From assembly GCA_905178155.1 (NCBI GenBank), contig CAJINV010000005.1, positions 9,150,874-9,214,873 of the forward strand: a stretch of 64,000 bases of DNA, in the 5' to 3' direction. Origin of the DNA: Amoebophrya sp. A120. Its lineage: Eukaryota; Protista; Dinoflagellata. The position numbers and the translations under genes were made by a program. Below the pieces are notes generated by a model. It was not told the origin of the DNA and made no database searches. It was given only the letters and a program-made list of their open reading frames with translations. Below, piece after piece: positions 93-62,396 of the stretch (its first letter is position 1; each line of letters starts with the position of its first letter).

Positions 93-3000
93 CCGGATTC
101 TCCAGTCGCACGAGAGCAACGGTTTTGTCAAATTTCTCCAAGTGGTGCTGCTCACTATTGTGCCAAAGTCCTTGACCTGGATCACGCTCTGTAATAATTT
201 CGTCCCGATCTCGCTCGTCGTGCAACTGCAGCTCAACAGGCTGTTCCAAGTGCTCTTTCTGGTGAAGGATGACGAGTTCTTGAAGCTGTATGAAGGTGAC
301 TCTGTAGTAGAAAAGCCGAGGGCTGCCGTTGAGAACTACCCGAAAAGCCCCAGTACACCATCACCAGCTTATTTGCTGCCAACAGCCGATGGGGATGAAG
401 ACCAAATTCCTGTCGCGCTGCAGATTGAACCATCCGTGGATCAGACACGGGAAAGCGAAGCGGGTGTTCTATCAAATGTAAAAATGTCTGGGTCTGGAAG
501 GATACAACTTGTGATGCTAATTTTGGAATCTACATAAAAACTGTATTGCATGAACAGCAAAAGAGGTGTAATTTGTGCTAGGCGGAGAGGGCATTTCTCA
601 TGCGGTATGAGCATCAGAAAGCCCTCGCAAAATCTTCATGACAAACTCCTGCATTCTTCCAGACCCAGACATTTTGCAATCCATATGCTCTTGCAGTCAG
701 AGGACCACCTGAAGAACAACAACCTTTGCTGCGAAGTTTTCCTTTTGACGATCCAGATTTAAATCGGACTTCCCCGGCGTCTTCTACTGCGTCCCCAAGC
801 TCCAGTAGCTCAGGAATGACAGTCACTACAGGCTCAAATTCGGTGACAGGAGAAGTAGAAATAGGTGATATTTCCTCAACATCCCTCCGCGGCTTCGAAC
901 GTCCGCAAGTGAACCGTTCGAATTTACTGGAAGAATTGGGGCACATCACGCACATTGTCACGGATAAAACGGGAACTTTGACAAAGAACGAAATGTCGTT
1001 CCACTCGAGTTTTGGATTCGAGAGGGGAACAGAAGTGAGGAGTGGCGAGGAGTGCACTTTTGCGATGTTAACTGACACTGACCCACCGGTGGATGATCCT
1101 GCGTCTCCCGAGAGCAGCAGCAGCAGCGATTCTTCCTCCCTTTTCGCGACACTCTTGCCAAGCTATGCAAAAAACGCCAATAGCTTTTCCGGAGATCCCG
1201 CATCAGAGGAAAAACTCTCCATGTTCCTCGCCATGGCTTTGTGTCACACGTGTGAACGAGATTTGGAAACTGGGAATTTGTCGTCCGCCAGCCCAGAGGA
1301 GATTGCTTTGGTGGAAGCAGCGGAGAATTGTGTGGGGATAGAATTTCTCGCCGTGAGGGACACTGATATTTGTGCCGCTAGTTGTACAACTTCCACGTCG
1401 TCGTCAAGCTCTTCTTTACCTTCCTGTTTCACGTACGACGTACGCATACCGTTTATTCAGCCGGGCGTGTCTGGGTCTGACGATCATGGTGTTGAGCATG
1501 ACAACCTCGCGCCAGTCATCTCCTTCGAAATCGCAAAGGTTTTAGAGTTCAACTCCGACAGAAGACGAATGAGCATCGTCGTGAAAATTCCAGAGACGCT
1601 GCCAATACCGAAAAAGCCACCAGATAGGGCGGAGTCTCCAGTTGTGATTCTGAATGATGATACAAATGCAGCGGGCAGCGCCGACTCTGTAATGCCAGAC
1701 AGGCATGCGAGAGCAAATGAAGAGCTACCCGCGCAAAACAAGTACCCCGCGGACTATGTCCTTATCTGCAAGGGCGCTGACTCAGTTCTGATTGACGACC
1801 TCTCACTTACCTCCCGGAACGCAGATAAACAACGAGGACCTTGCGAGAAAACACAAAATTTGAAAAGGAAAATTAAAGAGTTGAGCGAAACGGGGCTCCG
1901 GACGTTGGTTTTTGGCTGGAAAAAGTTAGACGCGAAAGAAGTTGCCAGCCTGTTCTCCACGACAGGTTGTGAAGGCGATGATGCTACTGGCAGCACGACA
2001 GTAGATGCAGACCTGACAGCCACGACTACAGCGAGTTACACTTCTTGTTCATCTTCGTCGGCCTCTTCCCAGGCCAGAAGGGTCGAGTCTGCAGCACGAA
2101 AATCATCTTCAAAAACAACCGACGATCTGGAAAAAGATCTCCATCTCCTCTCCGCTGTCGCAATTGAGGACGCGTTGGCGAACCACGTCGCGGAAACCGT
2201 CGACGTGATAAAGAAAGCGGAAAAAATCAAGCTCTGGGTCTGCACCGGGGACAAACCGGAGACTGCCGTTGCGGTGGCAAAGAGCTGCCATATTGTGGAT
2301 GAGAGTATGGAGGTGTGGAACTTAAACGATGAATCCTCGCTGGAACTCCCTAACTCCGTTGATTGTTACGCTTCCTCTTTTTCAACGTATGCCGCGGTTG
2401 TGACGGGGGATAAGTTTTGTCAGATTATAGCCGGCGACAGCGACTCTATTTCTTTCTCTTCGGGTGAGAGTGAGATAAGAAAAAAAGCGGCACTGTTATC
2501 ACCTGCACCACCACCAGCAGTGGGGAAGAAACTACATGTAGCGCAAGCGGAAGTAGAACTCCTTCGTTCGGAAAAGAACGTAGAACCAGCTGCACATCGC
2601 AAGATCAACCAAGACCTGCAAAACTTCCTCCTAAACGCCACCGCCGTGATCATCTCAAGAGTTTCGCCGAAGCAAAAACGGGAAGTGGTTCGATTCTTGC
2701 AAGGCCGAAATATCAAGGGGAAGAAGGGGAAAACGAAGCTGAAGAACACCGTTTTAGCAATCGGCGACGGGGCAAATGACGCCGGGATGATAAAGGAAGC
2801 CACGGTTGGCATCGGGTTGTACGACTGTGCCCTGATGAAGAGCTTTGTTCAGGAGCAGGAAGATTCTTGTGCAGCTGCTGATGATGCAAATTATCTCAGT
2901 AACGCAACGGGAACTACGACAGCCACAAGTACCCGGCCCAAAAAGAACCCGGCGTTACAAACAGCTGCCGTCCGACAAGCGGATTTCGCCTGTGGTCACT

Positions 3001-5785
3001 TCGCGTGCTTGCAAAGGTTGATCTTCGTTCATGGGAGAGAAGCGCACCGGAGGAACGCGTTTTTTCTGCAATTTATGGTCTACAAGAACGTGATTTGCAC
3101 TGTTCCCTTCGTTATCAAATGCAAAAATGTAGTCTGTGTCTGGGAAACTCCGAGATTTGTGATGCAGTTTTTCCAAGCTCCCCCACGTCTGAAATGCAGG
3201 GCCTAGCATCACAGATTCTGCAGTTCCTTGGTGATGCGTATTCTGCATGAGAAATGCCCTCTCAGCATGGCCAGAAGTGGGCACCTTTTGCACGTTTATG
3301 CATCACCGATCTTTGTAGGATCCGAAACACGCATCACAAGTTCGGATCCTTCCAGACCCAGACATTTTTACATTTGATATTCGTGCTCTTCGGGTTCTTG
3401 AGCAACGAGGCGAGCGGGTATCCGTACGTGTACCCGTTTCTGTATCAAAGTGAAAACACCCCTCCCCATACTAATTCGGAGATTTGTGTAGCATGATTTG
3501 GGACCACAAATCATTTTGTCATGCTAGAAGGCAGAAGATGCGAACTGTAGTGCTGGCTGGCGTGGGAAGGCCTTGCATCTTCAGCATGACAGGAGGCAAC
3601 TGGAAGGGGGGGTCAGCATGACAAATTGGCCGCAACTAAGGCCGCAGCTGCGTCTCTTGGCCTCCTGGCAATACAAACCGACTTGTGTGATGCAAATCCA
3701 GCATCACAAATTTCATGTCCGATATGGGGAGGGGGGGCGTTTCTTCACGATATTCTGTATTCGATGTTCAACACGGTCTTTACCGGAGTTGGAGTTTTCG
3801 CCTTTGCCGTGTTCGACCACGAGGATTATGCAGCAGAAGCAGAACAGCATGACAGAAAGAATCGGAAATGCAGAAACAGCATGACAACTTCCACCCCTGC
3901 AACTTTCATCTCTTGGGACCAGAAACTCATATACAACTGCGATAAAACCTACAACAAATGTGTTCCAAGTTGCCACGCGAAAAACTACAAGCACACGCGG
4001 CGGGAAAGATATGCAAGAAAAAAGCTGTGTAAGTGTAAATCTGTGATGCAGAAAATGCAAAACAGTTACACTTGTCATGCGGGAAGTGCGTCATAGGCTA
4101 CTATCGTACACGTTTCCACGTACTAGCTGCGCATGACAGGTTTTCCCTGTAAAATGCAAAACGAATCTGTGATGCTGCTCTTCCTACAAAGTTACACTTA
4201 CACAATTTTTTTCCTTGATAGAAGAACCGGTTATATCAATCCGAAACTCCTTTCCACCTGGCTTTTACTATCAATTGTAAAAATGTCTGGGTCTGGAAGA
4301 ATCCAACTTGTCATGCTGATGTTGGATTATAAAAAAATCTGTATTGCATGAGCAGCAAAGGGAGTCCAAGTTTTGCTACACGGAAAGAGCATTTGTCATG
4401 CGGTATAGGCATCAGGAAGCCCTCACAAAATCTGTGATGCTAGGGCATGCATCACAGACATCAGGAGTCATGCAAAATGTGCATGACAAACCTGGCAATC
4501 TTCCAGACCCAGACATTTTTACATTTGATATTTCCTTGGTGTGTTCCATTCAGTAATAATCCACTTTTTGGTTTTCGAGATTGGTACCGTCGGGACGAGC
4601 AATTTCGTGTTACTGAACAACTGCGGCTTACTATCCCGTGTAAAAACGTCCCCACCCCAGAGTTTTCATGCAGATTTGCAATGACAAGAACATTTGTGAT
4701 GCGCAGCCCCATGACAGGAATTTTTTATCGTGGTTTGAAATTTGTAATGCTCGAAACAGGATCATGATTAGCTGGATTTGTAGTGCGGCTGTCCTTGCTA
4801 AGAACCTGCACTACGCTACGAGCTGCAACTTGTCATGCGTGACTCCCAAAGCTTCTGGGTTTGTGTTGCAAATAAATCCCCATGTTGGCTGCGGGGCTGG
4901 GACGTTTTTACTTGGGATACTTACTTGCGTTTGGTTTAATGATCCTCCTCGCGAACTTCACACTATCCAAGAAAAAAACACCATCACAATCACTTTTGCA
5001 CAGTTTTGCAATACAAAAATTTTTGTCATGCGCAAAACTGCATCACAGTCAAGAGTTATAGGCGATTTTTATCGCCTATAACTCTTGACTGTGATTTTGC
5101 AATACAAGAAAAATTTGTTATGCGAGACAAATTTCTGATGCGAAACTTCCCAAGTGTGATTGTGATGGTGTTTTTTTCTTGGATACACACTTCTCTTCTG
5201 CCACTACGGAAGCAAGGCGAACAACTGCAGATACTTGAACGGCTTTGTTCTATTCGGCTGCCTGTTCGGGTTTTTCCTCTACCTCCCGTTCTACGTTTCG
5301 CATCTAGAAACTGGGGGCGACGAGGTGAAGACGGTGGTTGGTATTGCAGACGTCTTTGCGGGACGGGCTATCCTATGTAAAAACGTCCCCACACCAGAGT
5401 CAAGTTGGGAATCTAGCAACACAAATCTCCAAGTTTTGGGAGCTGTGCATGACAAGCTTTCCTCTGCAGTGTGGGGCTTGTTGGCAAGGGTAGCCGCATG
5501 AGAAAGCCACTTTCTGATCTTGTTTACAGCGTTACAAATAATTCCAGAACGCGACTGGTAATGCCTCCCATGGAGGTGCGCATTACAAATGTTTCTGCAA
5601 TTGCAAATCTGCATGACAACTATGGGATGGAGACGTTTTTACACAGGATACGGGTTTCTTCTTGGTACGAACTGGTCTACGACCCATACGGAATTCTGCC
5701 GATGGCGGGGTCGACAGTAGTTGGAATTTTCTTACCGTTTATCTTGGTGTCGGGGCACAGGATGATGCGGGTTCCAGATCTGTAA
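1..5785 (+). CDS. P4-type ATPase (phospholipid flippase), 5' end outside the window; multi-exon
   Basis: Motifs NNFVPISL, LLEELGHITHIVTDKTGTLTKNEM (phosphorylation Asp), ASPEEIALV, FNSDRRRMS, CKGADS, GLRTLVF, AIEDAL, WVCTGDKPETA, SRVSPKQK, AIGDGAND, then C-terminal TM segments (YKNVICTVPFV-LFGF, YSMFNTVFTG..VFDHED). Frame is restored after removing 8 TIR elements plus one 5-bp repeat each; stop TAA at 5783-5785. Confidence 0.93.
470..685. mobile_element. Introner-like element, family A (short, 216 bp)
   Basis: TATCAAATGTAAAAATGTCTGGGTCTGGAAG...CTTCCAGACCCAGACATTTTGCAATCCATA; flanks TGTTC/TGCTC; removing 216+5 nt joins ORF 142 to ORF 726 in frame. Confidence 0.88.
3113..3379. mobile_element. 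Introner-like element, family A
   Basis: Family A TIRs; direct repeat TTCGT/TTCGT; removal gives VPFV-LFGF. Confidence 0.92.
3443..3752. mobile_element. Introner-like element, family B
   Basis: TATCAAAGTGAAAACACCCCTCCCCATA...TATGGGGAGGGGGGGCGTTTCTTCACGATA; repeat TTCTG/TTCTG. Confidence 0.9.
4010..4220. mobile_element. Introner-like element, family C
   Basis: TATGCAAGAAAAAAGCTGTGTAAGTGTAA...TTACACTTACACAATTTTTTTCCTTGATA; flanks AAAGA/GAAGA. Confidence 0.87.
4269..4530. mobile_element. Introner-like element, family A
   Basis: Family A TIRs; flanks TTTAC/TTTCC; near-identical to 57658-57919. Confidence 0.92.
4632..4919. mobile_element. Introner-like element, family D
   Basis: TATCCCGTGTAAAAACGTCCCCACCCC...GGGGCTGGGACGTTTTTACTTGGGATA; repeat CTTAC/CTTAC. 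Confidence 0.92.
4964..5185. mobile_element. Introner-like element, family E
   Basis: Perfect TIR TATCCAAGAAAAAAACACCATCACAATCAC / GTGATTGTGATGGTGTTTTTTTCTTGGATA; repeat CACAC/CACAC. Confidence 0.92.
5369..5650. mobile_element. Introner-like element, family D (opposite orientation to 4632)
   Basis: TATCCTATGTAAAAACGTCCCC...GACGTTTTTACACAGGATA; flanks CGGGC/CGGGT. Confidence 0.9.
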
Positions 5786-6629
5786 AGATCAGATTGTGAA
5801 ATAGAAGCCGGCTTTTATTGCTTTACAGGTCGTGATGAAAAAAATTCTGTACTTTTTCAGTAGTCAAATGTATCAAATTTTGTTTTTTATTTGTGAGTTT
5901 CTCACTCACGACGGGCTTCCGTGCAAGCCAGAATCAAATGTACGTCTTCTACAGCTGCCGCCATACAACGGGCAGTCTAGAAAGATCCACAAAATAAATG
6001 CACGGCTGTGGTCTCCTGGAATATGACTTGTCGAAGCCACCTTCTCCTCAATGTATGTATGTCAAATATTTTGACACCAATATTATTCATTGTAGGCACA
6101 ACTACTGCATCAATCATCGCTCCTTGCTCTCATGCGACACTAATGAATACTTTGAACAGCAACAATGAACAAGAGTCCGCGCATAACGCTGCGAAGACGT
6201 TTTTCAAACAACTCTACTTACAATAACGAAAGCAAAGTACAACAACTTTCAACGGCGACAACGTCTGTGGTGCTATTCTTGCTTGCAACGTCAGACGTTG
6301 TAAGTACTAGAGCAGGCGTTTATTTTCTTTTGCGGGCCTCGATGCTGCCTGGCAAATCTGTGTAACATCAAATGCTACGAGCGAAGTTCTCCACTTTTTT
6401 GAGTGACGTGTGCAGTACTGTCGGTTGTTTTTTTCAAGCGATTTACACTCCAACCGAATCCGATAAACAACTCTTTCTCTTTTTGAAACAAATCTACTGT
6501 AGCTTCGATTTCTCCAATTACTTCTTGTTTCTGGAAAATGTAAGGAGGTTCTGTGCGACGTCCAGTGGTGGAAAGAACGACGGAAACGACCACAGGAAAA
6601 GGCAGCAATCCACTGCTACACAAGCTCGC

Positions 6630-9600
6630 ATGAGCAGTTTTACTCAACCTACGACCGGCAACAAACCAAGCTCTAGCCACAGCATTTCCACCGGAGACGA
6701 GAAGACCCGCAACCACTTGCTAGTACACCAACAAGGAGATCTTCGGGAGCAATTCAACAGACCGTTTACGAAAAATCCTTCCAGTAAAGAACAGCTCCTG
6801 CTCTCCTGCCCCGACTCCCCGGAAACCGACGAATCCGTGAGCATCATGGCGGATAACACACCCAAAACTCCCACCCAGGCCTGGACGGCCCCACCGAAAA
6901 CAATATCTCGTGCAAAAGTATCGTACTCGTATTAGTTGCACACATGCATGACAAATCTCTTTCCTAAGGCAAAATAGCATTACAAATTTCATTTGTTATG
7001 CTGAGCTAATTTGTCATGCGATTTATACGAGTACGATACTTTTGCAATGCATAAACAAGTGCCGGAAAGAATATTGAACCGAGTTCCGCGGCAAGCTCTA
7101 ACATCGTCTACAATGACGAACGATATTCGCCGAACGCCACGACAAACAACAACCAAAAATCGTCCCAGAAATCAACCCCCTCCGGCTATGGGAATGATGA
7201 CATGATCCGCTCCTCTAGTTCTGTCCGCTACCGACAGGGCGGGCACCCGAGGTTGTTCGAAAACATTGGGAGGACGCATGGACAATCGGTCGATGGGTTG
7301 TTAACGGATTTTTACCAAATAACGATGGCCTATGCGTATTGGAAAGCGGGGAAGCACGAACAAAGGGCGGTTTTTGACGCCTATTTCCGCAAGTGCCCGT
7401 TCAAGGGGGAGTACTGCATTTGCGCAGGTATAATTTTTGTGGTTGATAAGATAATTGAAATTTGTCTTGCAGTCGTGTGTCCAGGAGAGATGCAGTTTGT
7501 CATGCTAATACTTGAGTACAAACAAATGAAAAGGTATCAACGAGACCGTCCGCTTCCTGAACACTTTCGGCTACAGCGACAAGCAAATTGACTACCTGAA
7601 AATCCAAATGCCCACGGCGCAACCGGAGTTCTTCGACTATTTAGCACAGCTCGACGCCTCGGAATTGACGGTGATGGGGATGCGAGAAGGGGAAATCGTG
7701 TTCCCGAACCAACCTTTATTAAGGTTAGAAGGGCCATTAATCGTCTGCCAACTGCTGGAAACGACTGTTTTGAACCTTCTCAACTACCCTTCCCTAATCG
7801 CCACCAACGCGGCCCGGTACTATCAAAGGCAAATATGTCTGGGTCTGGAAGACTGCAAGTTTGTCATGCTTGTCTGGCATGACTCTCAAATCTGTGTTGC
7901 GTGAGCACGAAGAGGCTCTCTTGCATGTCGTGCAAAAACGCAGTTTGTCATGCGGAATACGCAACACCTAGCAGCCCAAAAAGTTGTCATGCTTGGCTGC
8001 GTATTGCATTGCGAATATCATTCATTTTTAGCATTACAAGTTTCGAGACCCAGACATATTTGCAGTCCATAGGTACCGGCAGGCGGCCACTTCTGGTGTC
8101 ACGGCGAGTCAAGCGTATGCAATGCAAAAGTATCGTACTTTAGTATAAACCGCATTACAAATTTCCTTAGCATGAGAAATGAAATTTGTAGTGCGGATTT
8201 ACCACAAGAAAAAGATTTGTAATGCATGACTGCAATTGCTACGAGTGCGATACTTTTGCAATGCATAAAGTGGGGCAGACGCCAAGTGCGCGGGCTTCCA
8301 TGAGCCAAAGATCGCCGAACGAGCGGGTGAATACGTCAAATGCACCGATGGGGAACGCGCCGGTGTTGATCGAGATGGGTTGTCGCCGGGCGCAAGGGCC
8401 GGACGGGGCTTTGTCCGCCGCACGATACAGCTATTTGGGCGGGTTTGACGCGACATCAAATGTGAAGGCGGGACACGTTTTTGACGTGCCGATTAAGGGG
8501 ACCCACGCGCACGCGTTTGTGACGTCGTTTAACAGTTTAGACGAAGTGAAGAGGATAAACTGCGGAAAATTGGGGGACAAGTTTGTCAGCGATGTGCTCA
8601 GCTACAGACCAAAGGTACTTACAACAACTCTATGCGATTTTGCTTACATGTAGTTGTTGAATTGAGCACAGGTTTTTGCACCGTTACTTCTATACGTTGA
8701 ATTAGCTTTCAGCAATAGCTGGGAGCTTCTACTGGTGAGGACGACAACACTCTTCTCTTTTATCTACACGCTCTATCTTTACATTTAAAACACAAAACAG
8801 ATCGCACCGCAGTCGAACGATGGCGAGTTAGCGGCTTTTGTCAGTTACGCAACGTCCTTTCCAGACACTTTTCTCGCTTTGGTCGACACCTACGACACTC
8901 TGATTTCGGGCATCCCAAATTTCCTCTGCGTCGCATTGGCGTTATTGGACCGGGGGCATAAATATGCATTGCAAAAATGTCTGCGTCTGGAAGATTGCAA
9001 CTTGTCATGCTAAATCCGAATCATGCAAAAATCTGTGTTGCATGAGTGCCAAAAGCTTTTCACTTTTGACCTAATCGAGAGGCAGTTTCTCATGCAGGAT
9101 AGGCATGATAGAGGTCGCACGAAATCTGTTATGCTAGGTCGTGTATGACAGACCTCGCGCGTCATGGAAAACCTGCATGACAAGTCTTGCAACCTTCCAG
9201 ACCCAGACATTTTTACATTTGATAATAAACCAGTTGGTGTCCGGTTGGACAGCGGCGATCTGGCTTACTTGAGTACTGTTTGCGATATATTTGAGACTTC
9301 TTTGTCATGCTAGATTTGAAAAAGGGAACACGAGATGATGAAACTTGTCATGCAGGAAAGGCACTCGACGAAAATATAAATAGGTACTTAAATTTCATTA
9401 TATCAGGTAAAGAAGCGAAGGAAATGTTTCGCGAGTGCTCGGATGGCCCGCATTGCAAAACCGTCGAAGTCCAAGAAGCATTACTAACTTTGAAGGTCTG
9501 CGCATCAAATGATATCAACGAAGTGACACTTCAATCCCTAAACGAGCAGGGGCACGGGATTGATATCTACGGAATCGGAACAAACCTTGTTACCTGCCAA

Positions 9601-10471
9601 GCGCAACCGGCGTTGGGAATGGTATCGAATGTTGTGATGAAGCATGACAAAAAATGTAGTCGATGTTCTGCATCTTTATATGAGGTGGATTTTGTAATGC
9701 AACTCTTGATGTTCTTTCATCGATCGTCCAGGTCCTTGTGGTGTCAGAATCACCTTGTTTGAAAGGTCGTTCTGCAATACAAATTTCCTCCACGACTTTC
9801 CAGGTCTACAAGCTCGTGGAACTGGACGGCGATCCGCGAATGAAGCTTTCCCAGGAGTTTAGCAAAGTGTCCGTCCCGAGTAAGAAAAAGGTGTACCGAC
9901 TGTACAACAGTAAAGAGGAGCCGCTGATTATCGTACGAAAAAAGTGTTACAGTTACACATTTGTTGGCAAAAATTCAGCAACACAAATTTCTCTGCATGA
10001 AAGAAAAAACTTGTAATGCGCGGACTACAAGGGAAAGCACGAATGAAATGAGACTGGCAAGCATTTCCTACATGACAGAGGTTGTCTGTCTTGCTTGTCT
10101 TCCATTAGAGTGTGTAACTGTAAGACTTTTTTCTCAGGATACTGATCGACCTGATGCAGCGCGAGTCCGAGGCCCCACCCAAAGCTGGGGACCGGATTTT
10201 CTGTCGGCATTTGTTCGAGGAGACAAAGCGGTGCTACGTGACACCCACCCGGGTGGAGGAGTTGTTGCACGAAGTGTGGGGAAGAACCCCCTGCGTGCCA
10301 ATGACGTTGGACGAAGCGAGGGAATTTTCGATGAACCGATTAGCCAGGTTTAGACCGGACATCTTGCGGCCGCTGAACCCCACGCAGTACAAGTTAGCGG
10401 TGTCGGACCCGTTTTTCGGGTTTTTCAAGCAGATGTGGCAGAAGTCCGCGCCGATCAAGGAGCTGACGTGA
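6630..10471 (+). CDS. NAPRT: Nicotinate phosphoribosyltransferase with a long low-complexity N-terminal extension
   Basis: [116 protein letters not shown]. Five TIR introns plus GT-AG introns at 7428-7533, 8615-8800, 9273-9406 and 9622-9803. The start codon is uncertain. Confidence 0.95.
6904..7053. mobile_element. Introner-like element, family F
   Basis: TATCTCGTGCAAAAGTATCGTACTCGTA...TACGAGTACGATACTTTTGCAATGCATA; repeat AACAA/AACAA. Confidence 0.92.
7821..8071. mobile_element. Introner-like element, family A
   Basis: Family A TIRs; repeat GGTAC/GGTAC (one of the few copies where a GT-AG register exists). Confidence 0.9.
8116..8267. mobile_element. Introner-like element, family F (opposite orientation to 6904)
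   Basis: TATGCAATGCAAAAGTATCG...CGATACTTTTGCAATGCATA; flanks AAGCG/AAGTG. Confidence 0.9.
8963..9224. mobile_element. Introner-like element, family A
   Basis: Repeat ATAAA/ATAAA; removal gives [13 protein letters not shown]. Confidence 0.93.
9929..10141. mobile_element. Introner-like element, family C
   Basis: TATCGTACGAAAAAAGTGTTACAGTTACAC...GTGTAACTGTAAGACTTTTTTCTCAGGATA; repeat CTGAT/CTGAT; removal gives PLI-DLMQ. Confidence 0.9.
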
Positions 10472-40345: not shown

Positions 40346-40369
40346 CCCGGGCCACCCCTGGGCCACCCC

Positions 40370-51948: not shown

Positions 51949-52239
51949 GTGTCATATGTCTGCTCAAGCCCTGGTCTACAACTTCGCTGAGATTTTTACA
52001 CCCTAATTGAGACTGGCAATGTTTTTACTGCGACTGTGGAATTGCTTTTTGTTTTCGCGAGATATGTGATGAACAAAAAGTGTTGACTACTACTTTTCTG
52101 CATTCGCAGAGATTGAGCTGCCAGCATTGAGTGGCAAGGGTGTTCGCGTCTTTAGTGTTGTTAGTGCTTTTACAAATTTGATAGCAGGATTATCGACCAG
52201 CAATGAAAAATCAAAAGAAGACCAAGCGGGGGCTCTCTT

Positions 52240-53730
52240 CCGAGGCCAGAGCGCGGACAGCAATCCGCTACGGCGATGCTGTTACTGCCGGAACAAGAAA
52301 CGCGGGCGCCGGGCCGAGATGTGGCGGCTGACGAGGTGCGGGGGCTGTGTGCAGGATGGATCCAGATCCGCCCACTGTCGTAGCGCCGGACGGCGGCGCG
52401 GTGGCCAATCTGCCTGGATTTGCACGAGTCAGCGCGCTGCTCGCGGCGTTTCCAGCTGCGGGGCTGCCGACGCCGGCGCACCTTCGATCGTTGCGTGATC
52501 TCGTGATGTCCGGCGGGGCCCCTTGAGAGACGGGGGCGCCAGGTAGGGCAAGAGGGCCCACCGGGCTACCGCGGCCGCCCGCGGGCGCCTCATATTTCCG
52601 AGATTGCCATGCAGATTTATTCCCTTCGAAGCTTCCGCCGCTAGTCTGCCACTTCTCCGGCTACATCTCGCAGCGTTGGGCGACCTCCCTCTGCGCGGCG
52701 GGAACTTGCTCCAGAAGACCAGCGCCCCCCGGCGTTCGCGATATCTGGCGCAGTCGGGGGGCTCGGGCGAAGCCGACCCGCTGTTGAAGAGCGGAGGCCA
52801 AGGGCCGGCCCCCCTCCATCCCGGGCTGGGTGTTCCTGGGCATGCCGTCGCAAGGGCCGGGCGCGGTATTTCGGGAGGCGCTGCGTTTGCCCTCCGACGT
52901 GATGGCGCGCGTTGTGGTTGGCTGTGGCGCCGCCGGCCCCGGTGGCGCGCGGAGCGGGGCCCCGCGCTGTCTGTTTCCCGTGTCTCCGCACCCGGCGGCC
53001 CCTAGCCGGCTCCGCGCGCCCGCCGCGGGGAGAAGGGGGCGCGCGGGGGAAGCCGGGGAAGGCTTGGCGCCCGCCCAATTCCGGGCGAGCAGGCGGCCCG
53101 CGCCTGCTCTCGAAATTTTGAAGACGATTGCGCTCTAGGCTTTGGAAAAAGTTGCAAAGGACCTGGGCCACGGGATCCATGAGGTTATGGCTGTCGCGCT
53201 TTTCCATCACCCCGGGCGGAATTTCATCGATTGGCCCGCACGCAAGCGCTTTGCTCACGAGCGGAGATGCCCGGAGACCGGTACTCACGCGACAAGGAGT
53301 CGAGTTGCAAAGCTACCCGCTCACCCAGTCCCGGCGGGGTTCCGAGAGATTGGCGACATGACGGCGCCGGCGCTGCGCCCTCGGCCGCGTTTCCGGGCCC
53401 GGCCGCGCCCCAGTGCCTGGCTGGCGGCCGCGCGCCCCGCCGGCCCTTTCTGTGTTCGTTGCCACCTGCTGGCCACAAAGGAAGCCGCGGCCGGGCGGCC
53501 GGCCCGGAGCGGGGCCGGGCATATTCAAGCTCGCAGGATTGCGCCGCCAAAGTTGGCGGCGGGCGGCGCGCGTCGAGCGCGGGGCCGGCTGACTGGATGC
53601 GCGCGGCGCCAGTGGCCCGGCCGCCACGGTAAGTGGGCGCGCGCGCCGCGCCGGCGCTGCCCCGTGAAGCCGCGCGCCGTGCATGCCCGTCCGGCGCGGG
53701 ACTCTTCGGCTTTTTTTTTGCGCGTGAGAC
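52240..53730. other. GC-rich intergenic island
   Basis: G/C-rich block upstream of the gene at 54071. Confidence 0.68.
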
Positions 53731-54070
53731 TTAGCTGCCTGGCATGCCAGCTAATTTTTGGACAGGTTGCCCCAGGGCTTCAGACGGATCATGCAGGGCG
53801 GTGCCCTCTGTGGCATAGTGGCTTTTTTTGTATGTTCCTCCCTGCCTGGTGGAGCTGGTGGCAGATTCCGGGGTGAGGTTGCCGACTGAGAGTGACTTTT
53901 GAGAGCATTGCACCGAGGTGAAAATTATAGCAGAGTAGCGAGTGCTAGTCGTGTGAGCCTCGAGCGCGTGAGTGTGGGCAAACAAAAGCAGGCGGCCCGC
54001 CATTCTGATCAGCGAGTGTCAAACCAAAGGGAAAGAGCGCGTCAACCCCTGCGCACGGGGCAAACACAAG

Positions 54071-57000
54071 ATGGCCACAACCAACACCATATCCTATGTA
54101 AGAACGTCTCCATGCAGCTTGTGATGCAAATCTGCATGCTGGAAACATTTCGCATGCGGAGCCCCATGAGAAGTAATTGCCAGTCGTGTTCCGGAATTTG
54201 TCATGCTCCAATCAGCACCATATACTACATCTGTGATGCTGGTTTACTAGCGAAACAGGACCACACTAGCACGAGGTCAAACTTGTCATGCGCAAGATCC
54301 AATGCTTGTTGATTTGTCTAGCAGATTTCCCATCTTCACTATAGCGTGGGGACTTTTTTCCACAGGATACACCAGTTTCGATCTCCTCCCGGGCCTCGGG
54401 ACCATGCCAGGCTTTATCCTGTGCAAAAGTATCGTACTCGTAGTAATCGCAATTATGCAATACAAATCTTTTTCCTAAGGTGAGTCAGCATTACAAATTC
54501 TATTTCTCATGCTGAGGGAATTTGTCATGCGATTTCTACTTAGTACGATACATTTGCAATGCACAGGCTTCGTGAAAGAGCGATACGAGCACCGCCCCGT
54601 GAAGCACAAACTCAATCTATTACGCGCGAAGTGGGATCGGGTTCTGGCGGAGAAGGTAGTATAATTGTGAAATTCGACGGTGGATCACGAACACGGAGTG
54701 TACCTCTTCTGCTGCGTGACAAGAAATGCAAATTACAAAGTTTGCAACCGGGTCAACAGCACCCTCAGTCGTTCTTGTGATTTTTCAATTGCAAATCTCT
54801 CAGTCATCTGCTATCGTATTTATCAGGAGCCGTCAGTCCCGCCGAGTCTGGTTCACAGCAAGTACAAATCCGCGGGTCTGACCGACTATTCTCTGCAACA
54901 GTATCGTACTCGTATTGCAGTCCTGCATTACAAATTTGTTTGTGAAGGTAAACTCGCATTACAAATTTCATTTCATCTCATGCGGAGGAAATTTGTAGTG
55001 CATTTATACGAGTGCGATACTTTTGCAATGCATACCGACGACAATGCCGGGGAGTTCAGTCCTGCGAAGATGCGCGCGTCCTTGAAATATGCATTGCAAA
55101 TATGTCTGGGTCTGGAAGAATGCAGGAGTTTGTCATGCAGATTTTGCATGACCCATGAGGTCGGTGATGCATGCCCTAGCATCGGAGACTTTGCGAGGGC
55201 TTTCTCATGCTCGTACCGTATGAGAAATGCCCTCTCCGCGTAGCAAAAATGACACCACTTTTGCTGTTCATGCAATACAGACTTTATGTAGAGTTCAGAG
55301 GTAGCATCACAAGTTGCATCCTTCCAGACCCAGAGACTTTTGCATTTGATATGAAAATGCAGGACAGCCGGAACAAGGTCATTTTGCCCGGGAATCTAGT
55401 TTTACCGGTGCAAAAACAGGATACAGCGAAATTCTATTTCCACGGAGCTGCGAGTGCGAGTGCGACGACTCGTCCGACCGCCCTGTCTGACGGAATGCTG
55501 CTGTCGTCGTTCCAACACGGAGGTGGACAGATGAATCCGCACGACGACTATTATCCACCAGCCTCCGGCGGAACAAGCTTTCAGTCCTCTACGGGGATGA
55601 AAAAGACCACGAGCGTGAACAAATTCGAGAACAAATTCGATTACGACAAAAACGTCGATTTAAACCGACGGGCCTCGCTCCCGACCTACCACAGAGGTGG
55701 TGGTAGTGACGGGCTGATGAAAATAAAAAACACCAGACCCGCAGCGCATCTTCCGCCAAAACCGCTTTTCGGGTCTTCCTCCTCCTCTTCCTCGTCGAAC
55801 CTAAAAAGAACTTCTTCGCCGAAGAACGTGGTAAAGACAGCTTCTGGAACAACTACATCTGCACCAGGCATGACAGCCAGTCCGCTCCTGTTTACTATTC
55901 CAAATGCCGCTTCCGCCTCGCCCGGGAGCCCCGTGAGAACGTCAAGACAAATGAATTACACAAACACCCGGATGAACTACAACTACGGCTCTACAACTGT
56001 CTCCGATTTCTCCGCGAAGATCCACTCCGAGTATCAGTCTTTGATGAAGTCTATCAAATGTAAAAATATCTGGGTCTGGAAAAATGGAACTTGTGATGCT
56101 AACTTTGGACTCTAAAAAAATCTGTATTGCATGACCAGCAAGAGGAGCCACATTTGTGCTACGCGAGGAGGGCATTTGTCATGCGGAAATGGCATCAGGA
56201 AGCTTTCCAAAAGTCTGTGATGCTGGGTCATGCATTACAAGCACCATGGGTCATGCCAGACAAGCATGATAAGCCTTGCGGCGCATATCCTTGCGGGAAC
56301 GTATTGAGCCCTTCAAGTATATTCGCCCTACTTTTGCATGCGCGGCGTGGGGGTTTGGATTTATTGTCGGTCTGCCATTTGCTCTCATTCGGTCGTGGGG
56401 CCTCACAGAAAGATATAGAAATCGTGCTCGTGCTGGGCGGGGAAAAATTGCATATGGGGCAGTAGATGTAGTTGTAGTCTGCATAGATCGTCATTGTGAC
56501 TATTTCCCTTCTAGTTTCCTCACAAACCCTGGTAGATTTTTATGTAGAATTACTTATGCAGAAGTACACTCGGAAGAATGGCGCACCGCAGAGAGAGCAG
56601 GCGAGAGAGCGGACGAGCGAGCGGCATGCGCGAGCAGCATGAGCGAGCAGCATGAGCGAGCGGCGCCGCGGCAGCGCCCGCGAAGCGAAAGCCTACGGGG
56701 CCCGGCCCAGAAGCAAAAAAGAACAAACCCGCGGGGGCCTCATGCCACTCATCCTCGGCAAGCCGGAAGGCCGCAGCCCCGGCAGTAGCAACAGTGGCGG
56801 CAGTAGTAGCAGTGCACTATCTAGATACTAGCTTAAAAGGGTCGTAGCGCAAAGAAAGAGGGGCAGTCCACAGAGGCTTTTTTGCATGGGGTCCACTGGT
56901 CACCGTTTCGCGCGAGCCATTCGGTGGACGACTGACCCCGCCCCATTTAGATAGCCGCTATGCGGGAGCTTTGTAAAAACTGGACTTCGTCCGTCTCCGG

Positions 57001-60000
57001 GTGGCGTGCCCGGGGTTCAGTCTAAATAAATTTGCCCGGGAAAATACCACGCAGCGGAGCAATCAGGCCTACTCGTAGGCCAGTCGGGGTCTACCCTTTC
57101 CCCACGTCGTCACATGTGGTTATTGGGTTCAGTTGGCATGTGTCAGGGGGTTCCTGTCTTTGGCATTTCCCGGCTCCTCCCATGGGTTCACTTCGACGAT
57201 TGCTGCCGGGGACATTCATATGCAGTCAGCCGGATGCCCGTGACCTGGCTCGTACTGCGAATGCAGCTGGATGACTGTGACCTGGCTCGTCTTCGATGGG
57301 CAGGCGGATGACTGTGACCTGTCTCGCCCATCAAGATCCCTAATCCGTAGCTCCTAGATGTTGCCCGGCCCGCGAATGACTCCAGGGCAGCCGGATGGCC
57401 GTGACCTGGTTATAAAGGGCTTCGTCGATCGATTGTGCCACTAGGGCCTTGTGTTCCGGCTACTCCGGATCGCAATCGATGGAGGGCGGGACCTGCACCG
57501 GCGACAGGCGCTATCCAACCAACCAACCAACCAACCAACCAAGCCTTCCACTCTTCCAGACCCAGACATTTTTGCACTTGATAAAGTCGCTGCTGCCCAT
57601 GCGCGCGGCGCTGGCAACCGGGACTCCCTTGGAAGCGGTGTGTACCGCGAGTCCGGTTATCAATTGTAAAAATGTCTGGGTCTGGAAGAATCCAACTTGT
57701 CATGCTGATTTTGGATTCTAAAAAAATCTGCATTGCATGAGCAGCAAAGAGAGTCCAAGTTTCGCTACACGGAAAGAGCATTTGTCATGCGGTATAGGCA
57801 TCAGGAAGCCCTGACAAAATCTGTGATGCTAGGGCCTGCATCACAGACATCAGGAGTCATGCAAAATGAGCATGACAAACCTGGCAATCTTCCAGACCCA
57901 GACATTTTCACATCTGATACCGGTTTTGGTGAGAGCAGCTGGCGGTGTAGTAACGAGCCCAAAGGGGGAGGAAAATCAAGGTGCGGCGGTAGCACCAACA
58001 ACAGCCGCGGGTTTGCAGCAGCAGCTGCACCAGATACAGCAGCAAAACGGAACACTTGTTTCCTCATCATCATCTACTTCGCAGTATCGGGCTTCCAGCA
58101 GCCCGCCGCTGCTGTTTAACCAGAACAGCGGGCCGGCCACCAGCAAGGGAACGATTAGTGGGACGGAACGGGAAGTTGCGACGGGGTTCGGTACAGCGAT
58201 GACGAAGAGCAATTTCAACCTTATTCCCCCCAGCAAAGCAGCATCTTCTGCCGGAACTGATTTCGCAAAATCAAGGCTGCCGTATTGGGAGAGGTTGGTT
58301 AAGAGTCACAGCTCCGGGAATGTGCGGGTAGTTTCAGACGGAAATGAGGACAATTCGCATGGTTTATTTGAAACGATGTTGAAAACAAATAGAGAAAAAG
58401 CGAGTTACAAGAACGTGAACAAACACAACTACCACCATTTGATCTCGCACATCCAAGACGAGGGCATTTTCCGGCCACCGAAACTACAGGGGATTTTGGA
58501 CATCAGCGGGATTTCGCCGGCGTCTGTTCTTGCTGGTGGTGGAGGGCACGGTAGGTTTTTTTGATGCCGTCGGAGGTTTTTCTCTTCGTGGACGACCTTC
58601 AGAACATTTCCGTACTGCTTTATCGGCCCGTGTGGCCGAACGGGTTGGTTGAGTTTTTCGTGGTACGAGGTTTTACCTCCAGCCCTCTAGGGTAAAACCT
58701 TCTTGAAAGGAGGTTTTACCCCAGTACGAAACAGGCTGCTGTGGTGGCTTTTTCGAGGTTTTACCCCTGGGGCAGGTGTAAAACCTCCAGCCCTCTAGGG
58801 TAAAACCTTCTTGAAAGGAGGTTTTACCCCAGTACGAAACAGGCTGCTGTGGTGGCTTTTTCGAGGTTTTACCCCTGGGGCAGGTGTAAAACCTCCAGCC
58901 CTCTAGGGTAAAACCTTCTTGAAAGGAGGTTTTACCCCAGTACGAAACAGGCTGCTGTGGTGGCTTTTTCGAGGTTTTACCCCTGGGGCAGGTGTAAAAC
59001 CTCCAGCCCTCTAGGGTAAAACCTTCTTGAAAGGAGGTTTTACCCCAGTACGAAACAGGCTGCTGTGGTGGCTTTTTCGAGGTTTTACCCCTGGGGCAGG
59101 TGTAAAACCTCCAGCCCTCTAGGGTAAAACCTTCTTGAAAGGAGGTTTTACCCCAGTACGAAACAGGCTGCTGTGGTGGCTTTTTCGAGGTTTTACCCCT
59201 GGGGCAGGTGTAAAACCTCCAGCCCTCTAGGGTAAAACCTTCTTGAAAGGAGGTTTTACCCCAGTACGAAACAGGCTGCTGTGGTGGCTTTTTCGAGGTT
59301 TTACCCCTGGGGCAGGTGTAAAACCTCCAGCCCTCTAGGGTAAAACCTTCTTGAAAGGAGGTTTTACCCCAGTACGAAACAGGCTGCTGTGGTGGCTTTT
59401 TCGAGGTTTTACCCCTGGGGCAGGTGTAAAACCTCCAGCCCTCTAGGGTAAAACCTTCTTGAAAGGAGGTTTTACCCCAGTACGAAACAGGCTGCTGTGG
59501 TGGCTTTTTCGAGGTTTTACCCCTGGGGCAGGTGTAAAACCTCCAGCCCTCTAGGGTAAAACCTTCTTGAAAGGAGGTTTTACCCCAGTACGAAACAGGC
59601 TGCTGTGGTGGCTTTTTCGAGGTTTTACCCCTGGGGCAGGTGTAAAACCTCCAGCCCTCTAGGGTAAAACCTTCTTGAAAGGAGGTTTTACCCCAGTACG
59701 AAACAGGCTGCTGTGGTGGCTTTTTCGAGGTTTTACCCCTGGGGCAGGTGTAAAACCTCCAGCCCTCTAGGGTAAAACCTTCTTGAAAGGAGGTTTTACC
59801 CCAGTACGAAACAGGCTGCTGTGGTGGCTTTTTCGAGGTTTTACCCCTGGGGCAGGTGTAAAACCTCCAGCCCTCTAGGGTAAAACCTTCTTGAAAGGAG
59901 GTTTTACCCCAGTACGAAACAGGCTGCTGTGGTGGCTTTTTCGAGGTTTTACCCCTGGGGCAGGTGTAAAACCTCCAGCCCTCTAGGGTAAAACCTTCTT

Positions 60001-62396
60001 GAAAGGAGGTTTTACCCCAGTACGAAACAGGCTGCTGTGGTGGCTTTTTCGAGGTTTTACCCCTGGGGCAGGTGTAAAACCTCCAGCCCTCTAGGGTAAA
60101 ACCTTCTTGAAAGGAGGTTTTACCCCAGTACGAAACAGGCTGCTGTGGTGGCTTTTTCGAGGTTTTACCCCTGGGGCAGGTGTAAAACCTCCAGCCCTCT
60201 AGGGTAAAACCTTCTTGAAAGGAGGTTTTACCCCAGTACGAAACAGGCTGCTGTGGTGGCTTTTTCGAGGTTTTACCCCTGGGGCAGGTGTAAAACCTCC
60301 AGCCCTCTAGGGTAAAACCTTCTTGAAAGGAGGTTTTACCCCAGTACGAAACAGGCTGCTGTGGTGGCTTTTTCGAGGTTTTACCCCTGGGGCAGGTGTA
60401 AAACCTCCAGCCCTCTAGGGTAAAACCTTCTTGAAAGGAGGTTTTACCCCAGTACGAAACAGGCTGCTGTGGTGGCTTTTTCGAGGTTTTACCCCTGGGG
60501 CAGGTGTAAAACCTCCAGCCCTCTAGGGTAAAACCTTCTTGAAAGGAGGTTTTACCCCAGTACGAAACAGGCTGCTGTGGTGGCTTTTTCGAGGTTTTAC
60601 CCCTGGGGCAGGTGTAAAACCTCCAGCCCTCTAGGGTAAAACCTTCTTGAAAGGAGGTTTTACCCCAGTACGAAACAGGCTGCTGTGGTGGCTTTTTCGA
60701 GGTTTTACCCCTGCCCTTCAGGGACGTCCGTTCCATGCGTGATTTGTGAATCAGAGCATTTCCTTTGTGATATGCGTCTTTGTCTTTTCACGGCAACAAC
60801 ACAAACTCAAAACAGCTCAACCTCCGCCGCATTTGCAGCAAGCAACGCCAGTAGATCATTCCACCACCGGGCGGCTGTCGGAGAAAGTACGGCAAAAATT
60901 TGGGACGGATGTGGATCTTTTACCGTCTTCTGCACACCAGCAGGAACCCAGTCCTAGTACAGCCGTGGTTCCAATTCTAATACGGGATAGCAGGGGAGCT
61001 GCGACGAGGAGCAGCAAAACAGCAGAACAACACGCACGAAAGACTTCTGTTGTCCGCGGTACCAGCAGCCGACGACCCTCGAAACCCCCTCCGGATCTTC
61101 ATGGTAGTAGAGCGGGTGTTGCTGGTGTTAGTAGCAAGGCGGGGTCGCCAGCGGATCAAATTCTTCTTGCCACTTCTGGAGGTGGTGGTTTTCAGGTAGA
61201 GCAGAGCAGCAAGCGCAGCAGCAGACGAAGCCCAGTGGAGGAAGAGCATTTTGATATAAACCCCGCAGCGGATAAAGATGATGGCGCTCAACAAGAAGAG
61301 GAAGAACTACCACCCGTGCACCCACCACTTCCGCCAACGAAACGAACTTCTTCGGCTTCTCGAAGATCTGGAGCAACAAGAAACCAAGTTAACTTCAGCA
61401 CCAGTGTGTCACGGAGAGCTGAGCTTGCGAAGGAGCGGATTCTGCAGGAATTCCTGGCAAACAAACCGAAATACATTTCCCCCATGTCGCAACCACGGAG
61501 TTCTACTTTGATGCGAGAACAACATCAAAACAGCGTAAGCCAAAGTAAGATGTCATCGACTAATTCCGCGTCACTCGTCGAAAACAGCAGTGCGAAGCAA
61601 ACCATGGAAACCGCGATGGCAGATTTATCGGCGATCGAGTTTGCGCAGCCTTCGTGCGTGGTACCTGCTTCTGCTGCTGCTGGTGGTGTCTCGTCCCCTA
61701 TCGCGAATCAAGATAAACAAAATCACGTTGCTATCCTGTGCAAAAGTATCGCACTCGTATAACTGCAAGGCTTGCATCACAAATTTTTTTCTGAAGGCAA
61801 ATCAGCATTACAAATTTCATTTCTCATGCTGAGGAAATTTGTAATGCATTTATAAGAGTGCGATACTTTTGCAGTTCATAGGTGCTAGTGCAGCTGCAAG
61901 GAGTAGAAGGAGGAGGATGCGGATCTCACCGCTCGTATCATGTGTAAAAACGCCCCCACCCCATAGTCAAGTTGGGAACTTGGCAACACAAATCCAGAAG
62001 TTTTGGGAGCCATGCATGACAAGTTGCAGTCCGTAGTGTAGTTCAGCAGGTTAGCAACGGAAACCGCATCACAAATCCATCTGCTCATCCTGTTTTCAGC
62101 ATTACAAATACCAAAACACGGCTCAAAGTGCCTCTCTTGGGTCTGCGCATTACAAATGTTCCTGTAGTCGCAAATCTGCATTACAACTCTGGGGTGGGGA
62201 CGTTTTTACTCAGGACATCTCGCGAAACACTACAACAACGAGGTGCATTTGTTTGATGAGGAAGATGAAAATAATGCTGCTGCCGTGAACATCGCGCATG
62301 ACAAACAGGAGAAGGACAGGAAAATAGACTCCGACCACACCGGTGGCACGATCACTTGGAACAGCAAACTGTCCGAAATGACGAGGAGTATGTTGC
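54071..62396 (+). CDS. Large Ser/Thr-rich low-complexity hypothetical protein; probably continues beyond the window
   Basis: Continuous frame from ATG 54071 through 8 TIR introns and predicted GT-AG introns 54599-54826 and 58551-60815, ending at a family-B left TIR at 62397. It could instead be two genes split at 58564. Confidence 0.62.
54090..54369. mobile_element. Introner-like element, family D
   Basis: Family D TIRs; repeat CACCA/CACCA. Confidence 0.9.
54415..54565. mobile_element. Introner-like element, family F
   Basis: Family F TIRs (ends ACA); repeat GGCTT/GGCTT. Confidence 0.9.
54887..55034. mobile_element. Introner-like element, family F
   Basis: Family F TIRs; repeat CCGAC/CCGAC. 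Confidence 0.9.
55088..55351. mobile_element. Introner-like element, family A (opposite orientation to 4269)
   Basis: Family A TIRs; repeat TGAAA/TGAAA. Confidence 0.92.
56052..57583. mobile_element. Introner-like element, family A, split by a 1.26-kb insertion
   Basis: Left TIR at 56052, right TIR ending 57583; repeat AAGTC/AAGTC. Confidence 0.9.
56278..57540 (+). mobile_element. Retroposon-like insertion with a (CCAA)n tail
   Basis: AAGCCTT duplicated at 56271-56277 and 57541-57547; 3' tail TATCCAACCAACCAACCAACCAACCAACC; no TIR and no reverse transcriptase motifs recognised. Confidence 0.72.
57658..57919. mobile_element. Introner-like element, family A
   Basis: Family A TIRs; repeat CCGGT/CCGGT. 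Confidence 0.93.
58666..60713. repeat. Tandem array, 108-bp unit, about 19 apparently identical copies
   Basis: Unit GAGGTTTTACCCCTGGGGCAGGTGTAAAACCTCCAGCCCTCTAGGGTAAAACCTTCTTGAAAGGAGGTTTTACCCCAGTACGAAACAGGCTGCTGTGGTGGCTTTTTC. Confidence 0.98.
61732..61880. mobile_element. Introner-like element, family F
   Basis: Family F TIRs; flanks GTTGC/GGTGC. Confidence 0.9.
61936..62217. mobile_element. Introner-like element, family D
   Basis: Family D TIRs (ends ACA); flanks GCTCG/TCTCG. Confidence 0.9.

Follow-up and report, generated by a model that had tools for sequence, protein, structure and literature searches.

Why should one short sequence recur every few tens of base pairs, in both orientations, within introns that belong to different families? 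The question is raised by a 64,000-nt stretch of the Amoebophrya sp. A120 genome (contig CAJINV010000005.1, positions 9,150,874 to 9,214,873 of the forward strand; "the window" below), in which some 50 elements of 150-320 bp interrupt genes and match the published introners of A120 type (Farhat et al., 2021, PMC7789003; Gozashti et al., 2025, PMC12130899). A preliminary description gave the sequence as TGT(C/G/A)ATGC or its reverse complement, and proposed either a binding site for a transposase or host protein or a mark that defines introns. The answer favored here, and on balance the probable one, is a double-stranded DNA site for a single factor that would aid assembly of the complex copying the introners.

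The elements begin with TAT and end with ATA. Around positions 10-14 they have an A-tract, their inner repeat is specific to the family, and 5-bp direct repeats flank them. Parts of the two publications describe A120-type introners as having terminal inverted repeats (TIRs) that start with TAT, continue with about seven variable bases and reach an A-tract, with junctions marked by short direct repeats; the many families, about 150, 210, 260, 305, and 320 nt long, are classed in the supplement of PMC12130899 as "TIR DNA, unknown superfamily," and NT-xx donors predominate in Table S4 of PMC7789003. Non-canonical borders, TAT-start TIRs, the A-tract, junction repeats, and family structure are all shared by the window elements, whose junction repeat resolves as a 5-bp target-site duplication (TSD). 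With TIR, TSD, short length, and no coding capacity, they also fit a miniature inverted-repeat transposable element (MITE) or other non-autonomous TIR DNA transposon.

For a larger sample, metagenome contigs were scanned with the TIR 20-mer of the family numbered 0, yielding 142 loci (L numbers below) and, with the window, 656 kb of non-redundant sequence; the sample comes from a single record set and is biased toward family-0-bearing regions. Element copies in the loci are up to 95% identical to window copies. A TIR/TSD scan of the 656 kb found 487 elements, and profile rescue raised the total to 615. Clustering of 486 elements gave 15 clusters of 2-200 copies each plus 22 singletons; family numbers here are these cluster numbers. 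Among 417 exon-flanked copies, 394 begin with TATC, TATG, or TATT. The target duplication is perfect in 387 of 487 elements, a partly circular figure given that detection needed a match of at least 3 of 5 bases. Independent support for the 5-bp repeat comes from contigs of runs X3-X6 (one sample), called RNA-like because a tool guessed them to be RNA: the TIR introns are spliced from them at non-canonical borders, and all eight TIR joints skip exactly the element plus 5 nt, while seven joints are GT..AG (15 of 24 joints listed). Two raw RNA runs, X9 and X10, of which only 39 and 4 reads mapped, were left unused.

In its originally described form the motif occurs 178 times in the window: 153 sites lie in 52 TIR elements, nine in short GT-AG introns, and 16 elsewhere. 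In 49 window elements there are 144 such sites, compared with 3.4 in dinucleotide shuffles (43-fold; maximum nine among 50 shuffles). This form is real but too narrow. A de novo search of element interiors returned GCA-NN-ACA as the top spaced word (100 vs. 10.7, family-weighted), and the profile reads GCA W B A(C/G)A R R Y; the broader form is 30-fold over dinucleotide shuffles. The orientations of GCAWBACA divide 91:92 in the 49 elements, and at least one site is present in 412 of the 417 exon-flanked copies.

Outside the elements the sites are rare, as first noted for exons and GC islands: density falls from 15/kb in elements to 0.24/kb in exons, and GC islands hold one site in 14.7 kb (null 1.6; 0.6-fold). 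Coding DNA (231 kb) nevertheless has 56 sites where synonymous shuffles have 30.8 (1.8-fold), and intergenic DNA (99.9 kb) has 25 where 21.8 are expected (1.1-fold). HIP1 and DUS are examples of words over-represented genome-wide; here enrichment is not found in all sequence classes, and its absence from intergenic DNA makes a mutational bias across the genome unlikely.

The motif is also conserved. In family alignments, column heterozygosity, taken for each base separately, is 0.12-0.15 in the core and 0.29-0.36 in the rest of the interior, about a 2.5-fold difference. Departures run at 0.087 in the core and at 0.225 in the same trinucleotides outside sites; the second spacer base is free (0.28). 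When private differences from the two nearest copies are counted, the core/other ratio is 0.60, 0.40, 0.28, and 0.35 from the youngest to the oldest bin, and in each of the four identity bins the core varies less than the inner TIR. Motif positions thus change more slowly than their neighbors, by about 3-fold. The youngest bin (core 13/2471, other 110/12624, p = 0.09) is the nearest to neutrality, as selection at the level of replication predicts. In the oldest, 5.5% core damage compares with 8.8% TSD mismatch, a similar magnitude. Copies that the gene model labels non-exonic, 22 in number, conserve the core as well (7/527 vs. 211/2487).

The arrangement of sites is not random either. Same-orientation pairs peak at 31-33 bp: 30% of pairs separated by 12-100 bp fall at 30-33 bp, against 5.5% in the null, an excess that none of 2000 random layouts reached. 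Such a pair is present in 13 of 15 families. For convergent pairs the preferred distances are 35 and 16-17 bp, for divergent pairs 15-16 and 47-49 bp. Length is better conserved in paired modules than in control spans (0.85 vs. 0.75, p = 0.015). Sites are also set relative to the element ends. Counting inward from the terminus, the first outward-pointing site is reached at 32-33, 41-44, or 52 bp in 15 of 16 family ends (36 bp at the other), a phasing with R = 0.80 at 10.5 bp (p = 0.003 with related families collapsed). The per-copy, family-weighted histogram of distances peaks at 32, 42, and 52, with 75% of the weight in 29% of positions; inward-pointing sites are displaced by about 2 relative to these peaks. 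Within families the offset jumps, with few intermediates, from 33 to 42 (family 0) or from 44 to 55 (family 3). Steps of about 10 bp from a cut end would be expected of a protein that sits on one face of the duplex and touches a complex at the end.

The sites could instead act in RNA, with UUGUCAUGC as an intronic splicing enhancer that a small RNA or an RNA-binding protein would recognize. Sense-strand TGT..TGC is indeed in excess in GT-AG introns (28:10, raw p = 0.005), but the bias weakens to p = 0.07 once trinucleotides are corrected for. The elements insert in the two orientations about equally (165:158 overall; lowest family p = 0.065). Family 4 has 4.5 sites on one strand and 0.2 on the other, yet inserts 21:17, and the orientation with 0.2 UGU..UGC per copy is still spliced. 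Fifty-three of the 417 exon-flanked copies lack sense TGT..TGC, 51 lack sense GCA..ACA, and five lack both; the copy at 14606-14884, with no sense TGT..TGC, is still skipped in an RNA-like contig. Together with the 10-bp steps, a signature of duplex DNA, these observations largely refute an RNA-level enhancer, which we consider highly unlikely.

Most unlikely is the idea that hairpins of RNA or single-stranded DNA, with the sites as their arms, join the intron ends. TIR stems of at least 14 bp do form in all 48 window elements so folded, and 61 of 201 sites pair with another site in minimum free energy folds. However, the variable bases of 40 opposed site pairs show no covariation (spacer complementarity 0.25 vs. 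0.24 expected), family 4 is nearly without opposite-orientation partners, the dominant spacing signal is of direct repeats, and five motif-bearing GT-AG introns do not form more stable folds than their shuffles do (z -1.6 to +1.2). To judge from sequence, the motif points to a protein site on double-stranded DNA tied to the element ends.

The families were first thought to be unalignable apart from their shared motif, which does not hold. Beyond the TAT...ATA ends, A-tract, and 5-bp TSD common to all, clusters 5/6/10, 3/7, and 2/9 align outside the motif (29-37 bits vs. 4-11 in motif-preserving controls, stronger direction), and most other cluster pairs score slightly over the motif-preserving control. 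The families are distantly related, not unrelated.

Canonical introns present a different problem. A motif-blind gene model, tuned after a first run had over-predicted introns, made 513 predictions of GT-AG introns, 114 of them past filters; with three nested and 11 element-like introns excluded, 100 plain introns were left, 93 of them in loci. The model recovered all eight validated short window introns and some false ones, such as 2305-2487, contradicted by RNA-like contigs; the unquantified error of the loci set therefore probably dilutes any motif enrichment. Two of the 12 window entries (34334-34420 and 34558-34653) are hand guesses, neither with a site. The window introns that bear on the argument are:

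7428-7533, + strand: GT-AG intron of the NAPRT-like gene; sites at 7463 and 7498 (35 apart); RNA-like joint
8615-8800, + strand: GT-AG intron without the motif, a counter-example; RNA-joined
9273-9406, + strand: GT-AG intron; sites at 9303 and 9346 (43 apart)
9622-9803, + strand: GT-AG intron; sites at 9642, 9693, and 9774
20262-21735, + strand: GT-AG intron of 1.47 kb; sites at 21345, 21474, and 21676; RNA-joined
22666-22776, + strand: GT-AG intron; sites at 22719 and 22736 (convergent, 17 apart); RNA-joined
22861-22987, + strand: GT-AG intron; sites at 22881 and 22924 (43 apart); RNA-joined; weak family-0 profile match (E 3e-4)
26035-26166, + strand: GT-AG intron without the motif, a counter-example; RNA-joined
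26652-26770, + strand: GT-AG intron of the ArsA-like gene; site at 26673; RNA-joined

The introns 9273-9406 and 9622-9803 account exactly for the 383 nt between RNA-like contig pieces. Intron 20262-21735 houses a 1.3-kb element (~20282-21614) with a different inverted repeat and internal tandem repeats, of which contig loose ends suggest that other copies exist.

All six GT-AG introns originally singled out for the motif are real and have one to three sites each, but they are a selected subset, since the RNA-joined introns 8615-8800 and 26035-26166 have none; six of the eight validated window introns do have one. In the 93 predicted plain introns of the loci there are 26 sites vs. 5.2 expected, a 5-fold enrichment over background (maximum 12 among 200 shuffles), and two motif 9-mers rank top in GT-AG introns with the window left aside. 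These sites are confined to 22 introns and absent from 71, so that the motif is not a general intron mark; this, together with the splicing and two-way insertion of single-orientation elements, leaves intron definition unsupported in its general or RNA-level form.

Are the sites in these introns relics of old elements? Some are. Decayed or nested elements with clear family homology are found in GT-AG introns at L041, L060, L067, and L077, and some of the 11 set-aside element-like predictions are true relics. Most others may or may not be relics: the 28 motif-bearing introns have no TIR, TSD relic, or mutual BLAST similarity, their best 16-nt terminal match (8.7) is close to that of motif-free introns (8.2; elements 12.6), and only five exceed a motif-transplant null against the family profiles (an earlier mononucleotide-shuffle null, since replaced by this fairer one, gave eight). 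A few canonical introns, then, are demonstrably relics. The AGGTAT repeated on both sides of 7428-7533, originally offered in support, is present, but it is ordinary AG|GT splice-site context; junction repeats of at least 5 nt occur in one of 28 motif-bearing and eight of 77 motif-free introns.

These results bear on common descent, in which the sites would be functionless inherited modules in DNA of locally lower mutation, and those of GT-AG introns decayed insertions. Families related beyond the motif and the four clear cases of decayed or nested elements fit this well, as does an excess of GTAT donors in motif-bearing GT-AG introns (20/27 vs. 29/67 motif-free, p = 0.011), which resembles G + TAT. 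It does not account for conservation that is position-specific, with a free spacer base, for one-turn jumps in offset, or for intact 9- to 10-mers in introns otherwise without homology (23 of 28 not over the transplant null), and is very unlikely.

A stronger contender, if still an unlikely one, is that a host DNA-binding protein on phased sites marks introns in chromatin and aids co-transcriptional splicing, so that only spliced copies survive, and that some short canonical introns are marked likewise. GT-AG introns of 135 nt or less are richer in sites than longer ones (10/20 vs. 12/73, p = 0.005) and share the 31-33 bp spacing (four same-orientation pairs vs. 0.46 expected, p = 0.0009; a 42-43 bp class was added to this test post hoc). 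With the 5-fold enrichment and the lack of TIR or TSD relics, such pairs make a host role possible. The first 20 nt after the 5' splice site are free of sites (0 of 46; 6.8 expected), and the stretch 22-36 nt before the 3' end holds 12 (5.1 expected). The lack of intergenic enrichment and a core constrained beyond the inner TIR agree with a host mark, as would constraint after insertion, suggested by an ambiguous test; in addition, part of PMC7789003 reports that U1 snRNA was not detected in the lineage. On the other side, 71 of the 93 predicted introns splice without a site, phasing of sites to the splice sites is weak or absent (p = 0.064 for 5', 0.46 for 3'), and non-exonic copies are equally conserved; helical phasing to DNA ends suits a DNA-cutting complex more than choice of splice sites in RNA. 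Motif occurrence near exonic insertion points has no clear trend, apart from a post hoc bump at 100-200 bp.

In the mechanism that we favor, the motif GCA-W-B-ACA-R-R would be the double-stranded DNA site of one protein common to all the TAT...ATA introner families. Sites lie three DNA turns apart, and three, four, or five turns inside the element ends; the putative protein would act in pairs on one helix face, touching the end-cutting complex and helping to assemble the machinery that copies the elements. Copies with intact sites would multiply more, conserving the cores while the sequence between them drifts. One shared factor is preferred, given a site that is common to families whose inner TIRs (positions 10-28) are different. 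Of the roles originally proposed, protein binding is supported, and for double-stranded DNA in particular, by conservation, spacing, end phasing, strand independence, and lack of covariation; the binder could be a transposase common to the families or a host architectural factor. Short GT-AG introns with phased pairs would most likely descend from old elements, their sites still bound and weakly selected in the host.

Several points weigh against a site for mobilization. In exonic copies with mismatched TSDs the extra divergence spares the core (ratio 0.26, CI -0.19 to 0.64; P(ratio ≥ 1) = 0.004), which suggests selection after insertion, although TSD mismatch is a noisy proxy for age: even where the body has only 1% private change, the two TSD copies mismatch at 5.9%. 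Defining sites by family consensus slightly favors conserved columns, and related families share end offsets and spacings partly by inheritance, leaving fewer independent observations. A role in transposition alone does not explain phased pairs in TIR-less GT-AG introns. The loci were sampled around one family's TIR in one record set. Finally, no mobile-element domain was found by Pfam in 185 (85 and 100) of 393 candidate open reading frames (ORFs), and the examined parts of PMC7789003 report no transposase for A120.

Mismatch in young TSDs could itself reflect either imprecise duplication or gene conversion renewing bodies at old sites. A cognate autonomous element with transposase was not found in the 656 kb; long TIR-bounded candidates proved to be nested insertions or chance pairings, without a transposase ORF. 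The family-0 TIR 20-mer is absent from the viral contigs and prokaryote genomes searched, and the spaced-pair pattern gave 11 loci in viral contigs, with only three or four sites each, about what is estimated for chance.

A site for the mobilization complex and a DNA-level host mark are not mutually exclusive. Conceivably, intron borders are set at the DNA level in this U1-less lineage: a host protein, possibly transposase-derived, on phased GCA-NN-ACA sites would mark a stretch for removal either way, transposons with such sites would become harmless introns, and short canonical introns would have adopted the mark. This we regard as improbable, though not negligible.

The elements of the window are listed below without strand, as they were tabulated; all are TIR introns unless otherwise described.

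1-91: family 0, truncated by the window start so that only its right part is present; 1 site
470-685: family 0; 4 sites
3113-3379: family 0; TSD TTCGT; 4 sites
3443-3752: family 3; 6 sites
4010-4220: family 2; 4 sites
4269-4530: family 0; 6 sites
4632-4919: family 4; 4 sites, all sense-strand TGT..TGC
4964-5185: family 9; 5 sites
5369-5650: family 4; 5 sites, all sense-strand GCA..ACA; RNA-like contig restarts at its end
6904-7053: family 1; 3 sites; strong hairpin (z -9.5)
7821-8071: family 0; TSD GGTAC permits a GT..AG reading; 6 sites; RNA skip 256 (length + 5)
8116-8267: family 1; 3 sites; RNA skip 157
8963-9224: family 0; 4 sites
9929-10141: family 2; 3 sites
13915-14129: family 2; 1 strict site; skipped in RNA-like contig
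14606-14884: family 4; 5 sites (the skipped copy described above)
14922-15080: family 1; 3 sites
16250-16502: family 0; 6 sites
19928-20193: family 0; 3 sites; RNA skip 271
23122-23324: family 2; 5 sites; RNA skip 208
23758-24067: family 8; 4 sites; RNA skip 315
24113-24375: family 0; 6 sites; RNA skip 268
25531-25701: family 11, upstream of the ArsA-like coding region; 3 sites; RNA skip 176
26222-26485: family 0; 3 sites; RNA skip 269
28206-28458: family-0 element; 6 sites; seems to sit within a long GT-AG intron (~28180-29928, judged by eye)
31012-31291: family 4; 5 sites
31350-31571: family 2; 4 sites
31944-32205: family-0 element with degenerate left end (border approximate); 5 sites
32263-32436: degenerate inverted-repeat element (borders approximate); 5 sites
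34023-34305: family-0 element with degenerate TSD; 2 sites
35831-36097: family 0; 5 sites
36496-36757: family 0; 4 sites
36947-37258: family 3; 3 sites
37402-37690: family 4; 3 sites
37746-38065: family 3; 5 sites
38187-38582: family-0 element plus 130-bp tailed insertion; 6 sites
41404-41583: degenerate family-1 element; 1 site
41852-42122: family 0; 5 sites
42197-42465: family 0; 4 sites
42545-42802: family 0; 6 sites
43066-43285: family 5; 5 sites
43339-43608: family 0; 5 sites
48272-48537: family 10; 3 sites
49111-49319: family 2; 4 sites
54090-54369: family 4; 4 sites
54415-54565: family 1; 4 sites
54887-55034: family 1; 3 sites
55088-55351: family 0; 4 sites
56052-57583: family-0 element split by a 1.26-kb (CCAA)n-tailed insertion beside its right outer site
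57658-57919: family 0; 5 sites
61732-61880: family 1; 4 sites
61936-62217: family 4; 6 sites in a single orientation

In five of these (5369-5650, 8116-8267, 14922-15080, 23758-24067, and 24113-24375) the TSD copies are unequal, and a cut after the fourth base is alone jointly consistent with all the RNA-like contigs. Assuming a single mechanism, and on five cases from one sample, the intron would be N-TAT...ATA-NNNN, its donor NTAT being like canonical GTAT; this agrees with the NT-xx donors in the part of PMC7789003 cited above (Table S4). Regions labeled coding by the gene model hold 404 elements in 291 kb and those labeled non-coding 22 in 235 kb, in this biased sample.

Some elements have themselves received secondary insertions, most of them tailed; of 12 cases curated by hand, nine lie on the motif (p ~ 0.03 under a lenient definition of sites). 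Of 28 candidate rows, curation dropped 16 as pairings of separate copies and one as a nested TIR element, and it added L133. The cases are 56052-57583 and 38187-38582 in the window; L040 571-1051, L041 3862-4492, and L061 11013-11984 and 15915-16410; and L059 5795-6297, L006 13462-14711, L022 10303-10759 and 11469-11837, L074 11761-12908, and L133. Three of the secondary insertions share one junction, one base inside the site, and the (CCAA)n-tailed element of the window recurs at the identical position in a second family-0 copy (L133). Motif sites may be hotspots for nicks or breaks. Inside a family-7 element, at L011 1813-2244, lies a TAT...ATA element that is nearly palindromic, about 110 bp long, and has a 5-bp duplication. 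At 62397-64000 a family-3-like TIR start leads into a stretch of over 1.6 kb in which AAATCGATTTT words recur and Pfam has no match, possibly the left end of a long element truncated by the window end.

In the 231 kb of coding DNA exact GCATGACA is present 12 times, whereas synonymous shuffles give 3.5 (maximum seven among 100); it is often extended by AA. The window copies are at 1496, 3847, 3879, 35467, 48640, 51194, 55868, and 62296, the others in loci exons; one pair is 32 bp apart:

3847-3886, + strand: pair of exonic sites of the P-type ATPase gene at a distance of 32 bp; possible exonized remnant

The window is a compact eukaryotic gene region in which every identified gene is on the + strand. 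A Pfam scan named P-type ATPase, PRORP-like, and ArsA-like genes; it gave no name to the NAPRT exon, whose product was identified as NAPRT-like from PDB sequences. Rfam had no matches in the window. Tandem arrays occupy 58660-60720, 28460-29900, and 38900-41050, with a near-perfect 108-bp unit in one and longer diverged units in two; the first two appear, by eye and from the gene model, to lie within long GT-AG introns. Unique GC-rich islands (62-72%) lie between genes at 11200-13100, 17150-19000, 44050-45100, 46450-47050, and 52200-53900, without similarity to each other or to the loci, and with little or no contig cover in the two examined. Among the loci, L012 has a C5 cytosine DNA methyltransferase gene at 2624-6079 (Pfam PF00145).

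How does the motif compare with known systems? Tn7 and Mu make a 5-bp target duplication and have termini of TG...CA consensus; Mu, with IHF, has several weakly conserved sites at set spacing inside its ends. Similar sites at the ends of Tn7, bound by TnsB, provide a precedent for repeated, spaced end sites (part of PMC9308760). The elements here differ in being TAT...ATA, in having sites of 8-11 bp across the whole 150-320 bp body, and in being spliced as introns, and no TnsB-like protein was found among the ORFs scanned. Short subterminal repeats in both orientations, bound by an element-encoded domain and needed for mobilization, are characteristic of hAT, CACTA, and PIF/Harbinger elements, with TSDs of 8 bp in hAT and 3 bp in CACTA. 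The elements have such repeated sites at constrained spacing from their ends, with binding by a transposase putative, but not the termini and TSD length of the hAT, CACTA, or Tn7 superfamilies (TAT..ATA, 5-bp TSD); one motif is common to families whose inner TIRs differ, and it also survives in host introns without TIRs. The nonconventional introns of euglenids and the MITE-derived introns of Fritillaria are, as far as the examined part of PMC11282704 describes them, likewise transposon-derived, having TIRs, repeats at the junctions, and borders other than GT-AG; the features conserved in them are terminal and paired in RNA, whereas the motif here is internal, non-covarying, and phased like a DNA site.

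The elements themselves were already known; what appears to be new is a helically phased, selected site common to the families and to a minority of short canonical introns. The examined parts of PMC7789003 and PMC12130899 mention terminal motifs only, and not an internal motif, its 31-33 bp spacing, end phasing, or presence in GT-AG introns. Motif strings and the word "subterminal" are absent from the main text of PMC7789003 and from its supplement (logo figures S19-S25 outside scope), and "subterminal" from PMC12130899, with 12 of 14 supplement files covered. Nor does an internal introner motif appear among the papers listed by the literature searches (in three of them the top 25 of 712, 20 of 62, and 20 of 195).

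How A120 introners move, and how their non-canonical borders are spliced, are named as open questions in part of PMC7789003. A single phased site common to the families is a concrete DNA bait for the missing protein. By implication, many families that look separate would rely on one factor, and this would account for their joint spread. If the site also works in canonical introns without TIRs, a transposon signal would have been absorbed into host gene structure.

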